A program made the translations under genes and the position numbers. The notes beneath the pieces were generated by a model. The model saw nothing but the letters and a program-made list of their open reading frames with translations, was not told where the DNA came from and did no database searches. Source: Minisyncoccota bacterium (GTDB lineage: Bacteria > Patescibacteriota > Minisyncoccia > UBA6257 > UBA9933). Taken from it: DNA of 64,000 nt. Shown piece after piece: positions 5,282 to 51,316 of the stretch (its first letter is position 1; each line of letters starts with the position of its first letter). The stretch is from assembly GCA_041650415.1 (NCBI GenBank), contig JBAZLC010000003.1:2033-66032 (forward strand), read 5' to 3'.

Positions 5282-5310
5282 TTGACAAATGCCATTTCTT
5301 TGAGTATAAT
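5282..5310 (+). promoter_or_regulatory. Consensus sigma70 promoter (TTGACA, 17-nt spacer, TATAAT) inside the rpsJ-rplC spacer
   Basis: TTGACA at 5282-5287 and TATAAT at 5305-5310, with a TG two nt upstream of the -10 box; perfect hexamers with optimal spacing. Confidence 0.6.
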
Positions 5311-5316
5311 GTAGCC

Positions 5317-5410
5317 AGTGAGTGTGAATTTTCCTTGTTGCCAAGACGCAAGTCGCGGCAAAATTCAAGGAATATTTATCCAGTCCCCCCGCGAAAGCGG
5401 GGGGTTTTTG
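5317..5410 (+). ncRNA. Short structured transcript (~90 nt) or transcription attenuator: nested hairpins ending in a strong intrinsic terminator
   Basis: Downstream of the consensus promoter there are nested inverted repeats (GAATTTT/AAAATTC, TTCCTTG/CAAGGAA, TTGCC/GGCAA, with a GAC-GCAA-GUC GNRA-capped apex). These are followed by CCCCCCGC-GAAA-GCGGGGGG plus TTTTTG at 5385-5410. No ORF is present. Confidence 0.4.
5385..5410 (+). terminator. Intrinsic terminator/attenuator (CCCCCCGC GAAA GCGGGGGG TTTTT)
   Basis: A perfect 8-bp GC stem with a GAAA tetraloop and a T-run. Confidence 0.65.
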
Positions 5411-5445
5411 TTGTTGCGAAAATTAGGCAAATACAGCATAATTAT

Positions 5446-5590
5446 CTTGCGGCTGCAAGAGAGCACTCACTGCTTTTTATGCCTAAGTGGCCACGAGAGA
5501 GCACTCACTAAACAAAAAAACTGGAGGTCACCATCGTGGCCACTTAGGTAGTAAAAACTGGCGGCGTTCGCCGCCATTGCAGCCGCATAA
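5446..5590 (+). other. Highly structured non-coding segment (long leader of the rplC operon or a second ncRNA) with nested long-range inverted repeats and a 14-nt direct repeat
   Basis: GCGGCTGCAA (5450-5459) pairs with TTGCAGCCGC (5577-5586). CCTAAGTGGCCACG (5482-5495) pairs perfectly with CGTGGCCACTTAGG (5535-5548). There is a GGCGGCG-TT-CGCCGCC hairpin at 5561-5576. The direct repeat AGAGAGCACTCACT occurs at 5458-5471 and 5496-5509. Confidence 0.35.
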
Positions 5591-25276: not shown

Positions 25277-25339
25277 TAAGGTGCTATGACGCGTCATAGT
25301 GCTATGCTATAGCATAGCACTTGAAAAATGGCACCTTTT
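25277..25339. terminator. Bidirectional terminator made of overlapping perfect palindromes
   Basis: CTATGACGCGTCATAG (16 bp) and AGTGCTATGCTATAGCATAGCACT (24 bp), flanked by AAGGTGC...GCACCTTTT. It lies between convergent ychF and the PAP2 gene. Confidence 0.6.
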
Positions 25340-46758: not shown

Positions 46759-46841
46759 ATATCCGCAGTTTAAATCTTGTTAAGAGTATTTTCAAGACGC
46801 CTGGAAAAGCATAAAAAAGCGAGATATGGTAAAATTAATTA

Positions 46842-48125: not shown

Positions 48126-48515
48126 TTATCTTTTCCACTCCGCGACTTCGGGGTGAAAATCTACTTGGCGTTCCGGTATCCCAAGCGATAACCCGTAACG
48201 CTTTGCTTCATCGTATTGTTCTTTGTTTTTCCTATCCACATAAAAAATCTTGTTTCGGAAAATAATATAGTGGTGCGTTTCATTTTTAAAATCGGCGTAC
48301 CATTCGTGGTCGGGGTCAAGCGACTTGCTGATTATTTCGGCAATCTCTTTAGCTTTATTCTCCGGGATTTTAACGGTATATAACGTCCATTGCGAAAGCC
48401 ATGGTGTTTCATGTTCTTCCGTCACTTCTTCAACCTCGGTGCTTAAAATCTCAATACTTTCAAGGACATCTCTACTTTCCAAACTTTCTTCAATTATTAC
48501 TCCTTTGTAGTCCAT
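48126..48515 (-). CDS. Hypothetical protein (129 aa)
   Basis: ORF with no recognisable family. Confidence 0.4.
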   Translation of the reverse strand: MDYKGVIIEESLESRDVLESIEILSTEVEEVTEEHETPWLSQWTLYTVKIPENKAKEIAEIISKSLDPDHEWYADFKNETHHYIIFRNKIFYVDRKNKEQYDEAKRYGLSLGIPERQVDFHPEVAEWKR

Positions 48516-48565
48516 ACCAAGTTTATTATATCAAAAAATCGTTGTTTTGGAGAGGGAAGCTATAT

Positions 48566-48594
48566 TGACAAAATCAAACAAATCTGTTATAATA
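48566..48594 (+). promoter_or_regulatory. Consensus sigma70 promoter (TTGACA, 17-nt spacer, TATAAT)
   Basis: TTGACA at 48566-48571 and TATAAT at 48589-48594, read by eye. It is divergent from the 48126..48515 gene. Confidence 0.6.
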
Positions 48595-48600
48595 TAGGCG

Positions 48601-48895
48601 GAAGGGATGAGAAAAAATTCTTTCCTGAACTGGCAAAATGCCATTTCAAAAGTTCTTTACAATAAGAAACTGGGTAGCGGAGCGTACTAGACTAAATCGA
48701 GAATTCATATTTTTACATTTTTCCTTTATTTTTCTCATATAAAGAATTCTCGATTCCTCTCCATATCTTCAGTCCTTGCCGGAACCATACAATTTTTCTT
48801 TTCCGGGAATTGGACCAACTGAAGATGGAGAGGATAGCTTTCGCCATCCCATCCCTTATAAAGGAGACTCTCGCGAGCCTCCTTTCTTTTTTTAT
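48601..48895 (+). ncRNA. Candidate ~300-nt structured ncRNA of unknown class (consensus promoter to intrinsic terminator, no convincing ORF)
   Basis: 5' AAGGGATG pairs with 3' CATCCCTT. CGAGAATTC (~48700) pairs with GAATTCTCG (~48746). CTCTCCATATCTTCAGT pairs with ACTGAAGATGGAGAG as a long helix. The terminator is AAAGGAG-ACTCTCGCGAGC-CTCCTTT plus a T-run at 48860-48895. The only ORF is 27 codons (48608-48691). Confidence 0.45.
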
Positions 48896-48936: not shown

Positions 48937-49827
48937 TTAATTAGTGTTAATAAATATTTTTAATACCCTTGATTCAATTTTTTTAATAAATTTTTCCCAT
49001 CGACCATCTTCTATTTTATCGCTATGTTTTAAAGGACCAATATTTTCTTGAGATAAAATATAATTTTGTTTATTTATATCGCTAAGATTAATAAAATAAA
49101 ATTGATTGTTAAGTTCTTTTGTTTCTTCGTTAAATGGAGATGCTATAAGAAAATTATCATATTTTTCTAAAACAGCCATTTTTATATTTCCATTTGAAAC
49201 TATATAGAGATGAGCATTTTGTGCTATTCTATGCCCCAAATCTTGACAAAAAGTTATCATTAGTAAAATTATAAATAATATCAACGAAAAAAAACCGAAC
49301 GAGCTTTTTCCAAACCATCTTTTAATCTGATTTTCTAAAAAGAATTTGTCTAAAAAAAATGTTATTATTGGTTCCTTTTCGTTTTTTTCTTTAAATTTCG
49401 GGACTAAAGTGAAAAGAATTAAAATATAGAGAAAAAATAAAGATGTAACAATCAAACCTTCAATAAGGATATATAAGTACGATTTCGTAATAAAAGCTCT
49501 CATGAACCAGATTGGTATACTATAAGCAAAAAAGACACTTAAAAATTGAATTTGTACGGAGTCTTTTTTTTGAGCAATGAGCCTATAGACGAGTTTCGCC
49601 ATCATTCCCGCCATAAGTAAAGATAGAAAGATAAAAAAAGAAACAAATACTATTTCAAACGTAGAGATATTTATAAATTTTGATGGTATTCCAAAATAAT
49701 CAAAATAAGCACTTCTATATACAGACGCAAGCCCATATCCGAGAGAAGTTAGTAGTCCTAAAAAAATTGCGTCGCTAAAAAATCTACCTAGATTATTATT
49801 TTGTTTTGTTTTTGATGTATTTTCCAT
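48937..49827 (-). CDS. Hypothetical polytopic membrane protein, very AT-rich (296 aa)
   Basis: Long ORF with multiple TM helices. It is a compositional outlier, noticeably more AT-rich than neighbours. Confidence 0.5.
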   Translation of the reverse strand: MENTSKTKQNNNLGRFFSDAIFLGLLTSLGYGLASVYRSAYFDYFGIPSKFINISTFEIVFVSFFIFLSLLMAGMMAKLVYRLIAQKKDSVQIQFLSVFFAYSIPIWFMRAFITKSYLYILIEGLIVTSLFFLYILILFTLVPKFKEKNEKEPIITFFLDKFFLENQIKRWFGKSSFGFFSLILFIILLMITFCQDLGHRIAQNAHLYIVSNGNIKMAVLEKYDNFLIASPFNEETKELNNQFYFINLSDINKQNYILSQENIGPLKHSDKIEDGRWEKFIKKIESRVLKIFINTN

Positions 49828-50011: not shown

Positions 50012-51316
50012 ATGTTAGCAAGAGAAAGGATTATCGTCGCGTTGGATGTTGGTGACATGGACAAGGCCTTGTTTTTTGTGAGCCTCCTCGCTTCCCGGGG
50101 AGTGTGTTTCAAGGTCGGACTAGAGCTCATAACTTCGGTTGGCGGGCCGGAAATCACCAAAACCATGAGTATGCTCAACGGCAGAGTTTTCTACGACGGG
50201 AAGTTCAATGACATTCCCAACACAATCGCCGGAGCCGCCAAAGCGGTCGCCAAGATGAAGGTGAAGATGTTCAATTTGCACGCTTCATCTGGCATCGAAG
50301 GCATGCGGGCGGCCGTGGCAAACAAAGGCCAGTCGCTTGTCCTGGCAGTGACCGTTCTCACCTCGCTTGAGGAGAACAATGCCCATCTGATTTTCGGCGC
50401 GCCGAGCAAGGCGAAAGTCTTGCAGTTCGCGCGCGACGCGAAACTCGCCGGCTGCGACGGCATCGTTTGCTCGCCGCAGGAACTCGAATTCCTCGCGAAG
50501 AACGACGAGGTCAAAAGCCTGCTTAAGGTCACGCCTGGAATCCGGGCATCCAATGCAGCGCCTGACGACCAGAAAAGGACTCTGACGCCGGAAGAGGCGG
50601 CATACAAGGGCGCGGATTTCCTGGTCATCGGACGACCCATCACGACCGCGAAAGACCCGGTTGAGGCGGTCCTGGAAATCTCGGCGGAAATCGCCAGAGG
50701 GCTGAAAAAGAAACTCCACATGCTTCTGTTCAATTCGCAGAAGATTAAGTTTGGGGCTTTCAAACTCAAACTTCATGAAGAGTTCCCCAATGCGCCGCTG
50801 TCGCCGATTTACATGGACATCAGGAACCTGTCCGAGCCAGCCTACGCGCTTATCGGAGATATCCTGCACGAATTCGTCGTGCGAAACGGCATCGAGTTCG
50901 ACTACGTCATCGGAATCCCGAAGGCGGGCGAACCCATCGGCCGCGCTCTGGCGAACGCAATCGGCAAACCGCTTCTGCGGATGGGAAAGATCGAAGACAA
51001 GGGCAGCCGGAAGATCTCGGCGAATATTCTCGACCAGTTCGAGCCGGGCAAACGCGTCATTTTGGTGGATGATGTTATCACTAAGGCGGACACCAAGAGA
51101 GAAGCCATTAACGCCGTGAAGGCAAACGGTCTCGAGGTGGCGGCCACTGTGGTGCTCTACGACCGGCAACAGGGCGGCCTGCATGACCTACTCAGTGAAG
51201 GCAATCACGCCTACGCCGTTACCACACTGGAAGACACTCTCAGTTTTCTCGTTAGTGAGAAGAAAATCTCCAGCGAGAAGATGGACGACGTCATGGCGTA
51301 CATAACCGCAAAATAG
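50012..51316 (+). CDS. Bifunctional orotidine-5'-phosphate decarboxylase (N-terminal) / orotate phosphoribosyltransferase (C-terminal) fusion
   Basis: N-terminal IIVALDV...KVGLEL...DGKFNDIPNT matches the PyrF type. The C-terminal PRTase motif VILVDDVITKADT with flanking IGIPKAGEPIG matches PyrE. The gene is ~55% GC with a canonical SD. Confidence 0.75.
   Translation: MLARERIIVALDVGDMDKALFFVSLLASRGVCFKVGLELITSVGGPEITKTMSMLNGRVFYDGKFNDIPNTIAGAAKAVAKMKVKMFNLHASSGIEGMRAAVANKGQSLVLAVTVLTSLEENNAHLIFGAPSKAKVLQFARDAKLAGCDGIVCSPQELEFLAKNDEVKSLLKVTPGIRASNAAPDDQKRTLTPEEAAYKGADFLVIGRPITTAKDPVEAVLEISAEIARGLKKKLHMLLFNSQKIKFGAFKLKLHEEFPNAPLSPIYMDIRNLSEPAYALIGDILHEFVVRNGIEFDYVIGIPKAGEPIGRALANAIGKPLLRMGKIEDKGSRKISANILDQFEPGKRVILVDDVITKADTKREAINAVKANGLEVAATVVLYDRQQGGLHDLLSEGNHAYAVTTLEDTLSFLVSEKKISSEKMDDVMAYITAK

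Follow-up and report, generated by a model that had tools for sequence, protein, structure and literature searches.

A candidate stand-alone structured RNA gene with its own promoter and terminator in a Candidatus Paceibacterota genome

Does a short intergenic region in a metagenome-assembled genome of a Candidatus Paceibacterota bacterium (Patescibacteria/CPR) encode an RNA that functions in its own right? In the 64-kb stretch of DNA that we analysed (the window), the region lies between two minus-strand genes, which encode a 129-aa protein (48126-48515) and a 296-aa protein (48937-49827). The flanking proteins are listed at NCBI as WC461_01740 and WC461_01745 (Candidatus Paceibacterota bacterium), and the contig is also found in ENA under ERZ27247363. 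An earlier note, written from the sequence by eye, described a consensus promoter, about 300 nt rich in helices and a terminator at this place, and left two options, an undescribed non-coding RNA (ncRNA) or the mRNA of a small protein. Our data bear out the former option, as the promoter-to-terminator unit is conserved, has no conserved ORF and belongs to no Rfam family. We consider it likely that the region is a functional stand-alone ncRNA gene on the plus strand.

The transcription unit and its homologues

The unit begins with a sigma-70 promoter at 48565..48593 (plus strand), consisting of TTGACA (48565-48570), a 17-nt spacer with a TG at 48585-86, and TATAAT (48588-48593). This is an extended -10 promoter (TGnTATAAT), and its consensus match is 12/12 with the TG in addition. 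The promoter named in the earlier note is hence real, with its first base at 48565 and not 48566. Only two perfect TTGACA-17-TATAAT sequences occur in the 64 kb when both strands are searched; as a baseline, shuffled sequences average 0.52 matches when one mismatch is allowed. From the promoter spacing we infer a transcription start at ~48600.

At the other end is an intrinsic terminator (48860..48893, plus strand), as the earlier note had stated. Its 26-nt hairpin at 48860-48885, AAAGGAG-A-CUC-UCGC-GAG-C-CUCCUUU, is followed by the U-tract CUUUUUUU, which runs on to 48893 and is present on the plus strand only. The terminator escaped a simple scanner owing to the A/C mismatch in its hairpin. 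The predicted primary transcript, i.e. the putative ncRNA, extends from 48600 to 48893 (plus strand, ~294 nt) and is bounded by a promoter and a terminator that are both conserved. A perfect promoter and a full terminator would predict an abundant, discrete RNA.

The second perfect promoter of the window belongs to another unit (5282-5412, plus strand), a candidate orphan hairpin RNA of ~95 nt with a fold z of -6.6, whose strong terminator CCCCCCGCGAAAGCGGGGGG is followed by a T-run. It has no Rfam match and is located between rpsJ and rplC, which are an unusual 950 nt apart. Both perfect-consensus promoters of the window precede orphan structured RNAs, as predicted here. A GC-rich element at 5447-5590 (plus strand) contains nested long inverted repeats (TGCGGCTGCAA..TTGCAGCCGCA and CCTAAGTGGCCACGA..TCGTGGCCACTTAGG) and the direct repeat GAGAGCACTCACT twice; it has a fold z of -7.5 and no Rfam match, and could represent a further structured RNA or else a palindromic element that is mobile.

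We found two homologues of the RNA gene, both on contigs of related Candidatus Paceibacterota, and the homology search suggested earlier has thus yielded two relatives that keep the element with promoter, core and terminator. The first, L050 (3954-3593, minus strand), is on a Logan contig that was reached through closer homologues of the neighbouring 129-aa protein. In this synteny search we applied nhmmer, blastn and a covariance model to the loci, and only L050 was positive; the RNA is absent from 44 species-representative Patescibacteria loci carrying the 129-aa gene and from 15 further contigs. The second, L071 (6362-6680, plus strand), is a full-length homologue from the JGI metagenomes and was retrieved by the 17-mer TGGGTAGCGGAGCGTAC, which is invariant between the window and L050. 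The scan of metagenome contigs with this 17-mer gave 31 matches, one of them true (L071), and more distant members without the 17-mer would escape a scan keyed in this way. The other matches fall in unrelated sequence, including the two best partial ones, L084 and L078, which were inspected.

The promoter reads TTGACA-17-TACAAT in L050 and TTGACA-17-TATAAT in L071. The terminator hairpin and its U-tract are kept in both, and the A/C mismatch that the window shares with L071 is an A-U pair in L050. Overall, the -35 element, the extended -10, the terminator hairpin and the U-tract are retained in 3/3 copies.

Other searches were negative within their scope. The covariance model of the core found no additional copy in 486 kb of related loci, blastn found no homologue in phage and plasmid collections, and a 16-mer scan of viral contigs gave only four chance matches. 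A six-frame concatenated pseudo-protein query against 5.8 billion proteins detected no called ORF over RNA homologues. Over the whole window, a tRNA-Gln is the one Rfam 15 match above the gathering threshold, while E <= 10 gives nothing credible, only noise, on the locus and on both homologous loci; the orphan unit matches no Rfam 15 family. We found no description of such an RNA in the literature. With three known members, the family appears to be uncatalogued and apparently narrow as judged from these searches.

The two neighbouring proteins differ widely in distribution. The 129-aa protein has at least 960 homologues at E <= 1e-30 across Patescibacteria and no Pfam, NCBIfam or PADLOC match, i.e. 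it represents a widespread uncharacterised family. The 296-aa protein is predicted to sit in the membrane; it is an orphan for which 5.8 billion proteins contained a single homologue, 26% identical, and it was of no help as a synteny marker. Its gene sits in a stretch of 31% GC, compared with ~41% for the genome; in the related locus L046 an unrelated 253-aa gene occupies its position, and the 45 nt after the stop codon are shared. Further along the window, at 50012-51316 (plus strand), one 434-aa ORF fuses OMP decarboxylase (PyrF) to a PyrE-like phosphoribosyltransferase domain, in a 50% GC segment well over the local average. As a separate observation on the groundwater contigs L095 and L094, an 86-aa GIY-YIG ORF is called between dnaG and a GrpB-family gene in L095 (9027-9287) and none in the otherwise identical L094, a difference that rests on the listed gene calls.

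Secondary structure and its conservation

The 298-nt stretch has a minimum free energy (MFE) of -93.8 kcal/mol compared with -63.4 +/- 4.8 for shuffled sequences (z = -6.3), and 0/200 shuffles fold as well. The complementary strand folds about as well or better (z = -5.5), so the folding energy cannot tell which strand is the relevant one. We obtained a consensus fold with RNAalifold on the three copies (window, L050 and L071), in which three 5' hairpins (H1-H3) are followed by a three-way junction, formed by the closing helix H4 and by H5 and H6, and then by the terminator.

H1 (48600..48625, plus strand as all elements below) has 9 bp, GGAAGGGAU / AUUCUUUCC, around an 8-nt loop; three of its pairs alternate between A-U and G-U across the three copies and zero are broken. 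H2 (48626..48648), UGAA.UGGCA-AAA-UGCCA.UUCA, has a conserved base and a tip of variable length: L071 has 10 nt inserted there, and the 56-nt insertion of L050 itself forms further hairpins. H3 (48653..48668) is an invariant 5-bp stem, UUCUU / AAGAA, with a variable loop (UACAAU vs UAAUAGCA).

The three-way junction is closed by H4, whose 5' strand (48671..48684, UGGG..GCGGAGCG) contains the invariant 17-mer and pairs in the consensus with the 3' strand AGCUUUCGCCAUCCCA at 48836..48851. Ten of its 12 pairs are invariant, and a 2-nt indel (AC) falls in the internal loop of the 3' strand. The strand between H4 and H5 (48685..48695, UACUAGACUAA) is unpaired in the consensus and has one substitution among the three copies. 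H5 (48696..48754) consists of an 11-bp stem, AUCGAGAAUUC / GAAUUCUCGAU, with 11/11 pairs invariant, and a U-rich loop of 35-37 nt (48707-48743 in the window), which has a conserved core, UUUUUCCUUUAU, several substitutions and one 2-nt indel. H6 (48755..48834) is an irregular 80-nt hairpin with an AU bulge, internal loops (G, UU, CAAC and G) and an apical loop of 14-16 nt; 25/27 pairs are invariant, the other two show wobble changes, and the apical loop is variable with a 2-nt indel.

Three helices had been proposed by eye, and two of them stand in full. The 9-bp helix of CGAGAATTC (48698-706) with GAATTCTCG (48744-52) is present, is really 11 bp long (H5) and is invariant in all copies, and the ~15-bp helix of CTCTCCATATCTTCAGT (48757-73) with ACTGAAGATGGAGAG (48818-32) is part of H6 and equally invariant. 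The third, a pairing of the 5' and 3' ends by AAGGGATG (48602-09) and CATCCCTT (48850-57), exists in the window, where the single-sequence MFE fold uses it, but it is not conserved in L050 and L071. Its 5' arm (48602..48609, AAGGGAUG, with the partner CAUCCCUU at 48850-48857) reads GAGAGAAU in L050 and GAAAGAAU in L071, neither of them complementary to the 3' arm, which is unchanged. We regard it as a window-only alternative; in the consensus the local hairpin H1 replaces it in all three copies.

The 203-nt core (48650-48852) is 90.5-94.3% identical among the three copies, with 93.5% between the window and L071 and 90.5% between the window and L050, while the 5' 50 nt are 69-77% identical. At the DNA level the flanking protein genes of the window are 79-80% identical to those of L050 and ~72% to L071, the latter over the only alignable coding stretch. 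Variation avoids the stems: 13/163 paired columns are variable versus 26/118 unpaired ones (Fisher p = 0.0014), and 66 of the 69 gap columns are unpaired. Leaving out the terminator, 7/9 stem substitutions are G-U-compatible on the plus strand, which has P ~0.008 by our own estimate that assumes one third to be compatible by chance. The same wobble changes read on the minus strand are C-A mismatches, and unpaired cells number 9 on that strand vs 4 on the plus strand. Pairs changed on both sides are 0/83, a count that comes from only three close sequences. In our reading of the alignment, the avoidance of stems by substitutions and indels indicates selection on the structure since the copies diverged.

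Coding capacity, neighbouring genes and history of the locus

The window does contain the 27-codon ORF that the earlier note had listed (48607-48690). However, the idea of a small-protein mRNA fails on the homologues: the ATG is ATA in L050, and in L071 the frame and the C-terminus differ after the H2 indel. No ORF is common to the three copies in any frame, and the 2-nt indels in the H5 loop, the H6 loop and H4 disrupt every longer frame. As the 27-codon ORF is not conserved, we conclude that the unit is not a small-protein mRNA.

A related proposal is a type I toxin mRNA, a kind of mRNA with extensive structure whose translation is controlled by 5'-3' pairing. Like the hok-type mRNAs, the unit is a compact promoter-to-terminator gene of ~300 nt with strong folding, and the window copy alone adds a small ORF and a possible pairing of the ends, which the MFE fold indeed joins. 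An internal AUG at 48825 would also yield a hydrophobic peptide of 39 residues. But the ORF from 48825 has three unrelated C-termini in the three copies and runs through the terminator in the window, and the start codon of the 27-codon ORF is only 6-7 nt away from the predicted 5' end and follows the purine tract without spacing. The end pairing and the ORF are not conserved, no antisense RNA gene is evident, and the pseudo-protein query had returned no called ORF. We give hardly any credence to a small-protein or toxin mRNA controlled by 5'-3' pairing.

Could the unit instead be a cis-acting leader (a riboswitch, an attenuator or a long 5' UTR), either on the plus strand or, read on the minus strand, of the operon that begins with hyp129 (the gene of the 129-aa protein), idi or purH? 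Riboswitch and T-box leaders likewise combine a promoter, a large conserved fold and an intrinsic terminator, and a same-strand gene follows the terminator by ~75 nt in L050 and ~180 nt in L071. The H5 loop can also pair with 10 nt of the 5' arm of the terminator in an anti-terminator-like way. However, this match is not above chance: the conserved 10-nt match arises in 13% of shuffled loops, and the loop-terminator pseudoknot or anti-terminator was set aside. The next gene 3' of the RNA is the convergent orphan gene in the window, leaving no gene to regulate there, and is unrelated in the other two loci, VanY in L050 and an orphan 264-aa protein in L071. There is thus no conserved downstream gene, and no Rfam match either. 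The downstream genes of both L050 and L071 carry promoter-like sequences of their own; that of VanY, TGnTAAAAT located 6 nt before the start codon, is the same with the RNA upstream (L050) or without it (window). With a convergent neighbour in the window and a conserved promoter owned by VanY, the region is not simply the 5' UTR of a longer mRNA.

The case for a minus-strand leader is that this strand folds as well and points into an operon in all three loci. A putative back-to-back promoter at 48525..48533 (minus strand) has the extended -10 TGATATAAT, 9 nt before the ATG of the 129-aa gene. The block CAT-N9-TTATTATAT-CAAAAAATCG-TTGTTTTG aligns in 5/5 related loci, and it adjoins the RNA promoter wherever the RNA is present (window, L050 and L071). 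The gene behind this block is hyp129 in the window, L046 and L002, idi in L050 and purH in L071, and the divergent operon runs idi-138aa-hyp129 in L050 and purH-idi in L071. We infer that the divergent block acts as a promoter. Its extended -10 is located between the element and the ATG of the operon, and therefore the element would lie upstream of the start site and not in the 5' UTR of the operon. A minus-strand leader would also leave the conserved perfect promoter and the U-tract of the plus strand unexplained, and it would turn the wobble changes into C-A mismatches. Taken for either strand, a cis-acting leader seems very unlikely to us.

Promoters close to start codons are not limited to this site. 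Extended -10 elements (TGnTAAAAT or TGATATAAT) are found 6-9 nt before the starts of VanY (46826-46841) and of the 129-aa gene (48516-48533), and also at 3520-3540 of L050, and Shine-Dalgarno (SD) motifs occur upstream of only 5-7/72 ORFs. These sequence patterns suggest that initiation in this organism may be mostly leaderless or SD-independent.

The high identity of the core raises a further question, namely whether the three copies resemble each other through recent horizontal transfer and not through selection on an RNA. The DNA would then be a mobile or selfish cassette, either MITE- or REP-like or simply a fragment transferred recently. The RNA core is 90-94% identical, above the 72-80% of the flanking genes, and its identity does not track genome distance, as the pairwise values given above illustrate. 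The downstream context is different in all three loci and the local GC content is 31% vs ~41% elsewhere. In the closest relative, L002, the flanks are joined directly and the RNA gene is absent at the site; L046 has a different, palindrome-bearing segment of 225 nt there, and a 4-nt repeat, ACGA, is found at both junctions in the window.

Against a cassette, the same divergent block abuts the RNA promoter in the three loci and also exists in the two loci without the RNA, which fits vertical descent with loss. Next to the RNA, L050 and L071 have idi genes that are 84% identical. We set aside an insertion into an empty site (as represented by L002 and L046) because the divergent block is common to all five loci and because of this identity of the idi genes. 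The element lacks terminal inverted repeats, neither the 64-kb window nor the 486 kb of related loci contains a second copy, and the Pfam annotation of the neighbours in the three loci reveals no transposase, integrase or reverse transcriptase gene nearby. The ACGA repeat is equally compatible with a microhomology-mediated deletion, and the avoidance of stems by substitutions and indels speaks against a cassette as well. On balance we regard the mobile cassette as unlikely.

A recognisable repeat family does exist in these genomes. A perfect 24-nt palindrome, AGTGCTATGCTATAGCATAGCACT, at 25287-25321 of the window is a member of a REP-like intergenic repeat family that also occurs in a related genome, and copies of it at 818-857 and 2368-2412 of L046 occupy the site of the window's RNA gene.

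For the stand-alone RNA gene, the simplest account of these loci would be an ancestral back-to-back promoter pair, of which the divergent operon later changed and the RNA was lost in the lineages of L046 and L002; the ACGA repeat fits such a loss by microhomology-mediated deletion. The gene appears, from this comparison, to be ancestral to a clade of Candidatus Paceibacterota at the genus or family level. The two closest relatives sampled do not have it at this site, and it is therefore probably an accessory gene and not an essential one, unless it has been relocated elsewhere in the genomes of L002 and L046.

Relation to known RNAs and possible modes of action

The earlier note had recognised no features of RNase P RNA, tmRNA, SRP RNA or 6S RNA by eye, and both Rfam 15 (E <= 10) and ARAGORN confirm this, with ARAGORN reporting for the window the tRNA-Gln only and no tmRNA. 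6S RNA (RF00013) has no match at E <= 10, and the consensus here is branched, where 6S RNA is a rod with a central bubble. A tRNA-like end as in tmRNA is missing. On direct reading, the P4/CR-I/CR-V sequences of RNase P RNA and the GNAR-capped helix-8 motif of SRP RNA are absent. Retron msr-msd, TnpB/IscB omega RNA and IS110 bridge RNA were rejected too, as Pfam annotation of the three loci gave no adjacent reverse transcriptase, TnpB/IscB or IS110 recombinase, and PADLOC found nothing.

One may still ask whether the unit encodes a highly divergent version of one of the housekeeping RNAs (6S, SRP, RNase P or tmRNA). The consensus promoter suggests high constitutive expression, the sequence is under strong constraint, the RNAs of Patescibacteria can be atypical, and none of the four RNAs is found by Rfam in the 64-kb window. 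Yet no model matches any of the three copies even at E <= 10, the hallmarks just listed are missing from the branched consensus, and an essential RNA would not be expected to be missing from its site in the two closest relatives, as this one is. A housekeeping RNA in disguise is, in our view, highly improbable. The likeness to 6S RNA is of a general kind: small to medium size, expected abundance, a strong promoter and a proposed protein-binding role in trans. In structure the two differ, as 6S RNA has a long helix with a central bubble and the RNA here has three 5' hairpins and a three-way junction, is longer (~295 nt) and does not match the model.

A likeness may also be found in the orphan ncRNA classes known from comparative genomics, e.g. 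the raiA motif, which have hundreds or thousands of representatives. RNAs of the raiA motif type, too, come from stand-alone genes of a few hundred nt with their own promoter and terminator; several stems surround junctions, the internal loops are highly conserved, and neither coding potential nor an obvious target is apparent. Unlike them, the RNA described here has no sequence or structure match in Rfam 15, shows 0/83 covarying pairs among its three sequences, and is known from three contigs of one Paceibacterota clade instead of hundreds or thousands of members. The RNA is of a familiar kind, an orphan bacterial ncRNA, and the family itself is previously uncatalogued.

As to how the RNA may work, we propose that the plus strand would be transcribed from the consensus extended -10 sigma-70 promoter and that transcription would stop at the unit's own intrinsic terminator, giving an RNA of ~295 nt. 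This RNA would fold into H1-H3 and the three-way junction closed by H4, in which H5 with its U-rich 35-nt loop would be stacked next to H6, and it would be expressed and act in trans. The mode that we prefer, tentatively, is that of a stable trans-acting scaffold or decoy that binds protein in a ribonucleoprotein. We favour it because stems, bulges, internal loops and junction strands are near-invariant over 203 nt, beyond what a short seed would need. Near-invariance of stems, loops and junctions is typical of RNAs that are recognised in three dimensions by a protein or a ligand.

Our second choice, a more doubtful one, is an antisense regulator that base-pairs through the U-rich H5 loop. We examined the UCCUUU of this loop as an anti-SD-like seed and rejected it, as 72 translation-initiation regions show no enrichment of complementarity to it and SD motifs are rare. 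It is also conceivable, and on present sequences rather unlikely, that the H4-H6 core serves an unrecognised ribonucleoprotein as its RNA subunit, or that it is a catalytic RNA or one that binds a ligand, in either case specific to a small clade of ultra-small Paceibacterota. If so, this would be a functionally new class of structured RNA and not another base-pairing regulator.

With three sequences, the RNA is a candidate and not yet a discovery, and it offers a concrete target for metatranscriptomic and structural follow-up. Bacteria of the Candidate Phyla Radiation have tiny genomes and few recognisable regulators, and to our knowledge almost nothing is known about their non-coding RNAs. 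If the unit is confirmed to encode a constrained, independently transcribed RNA of 300 nt, this would suggest that RNA-based functions are under-annotated in these organisms.
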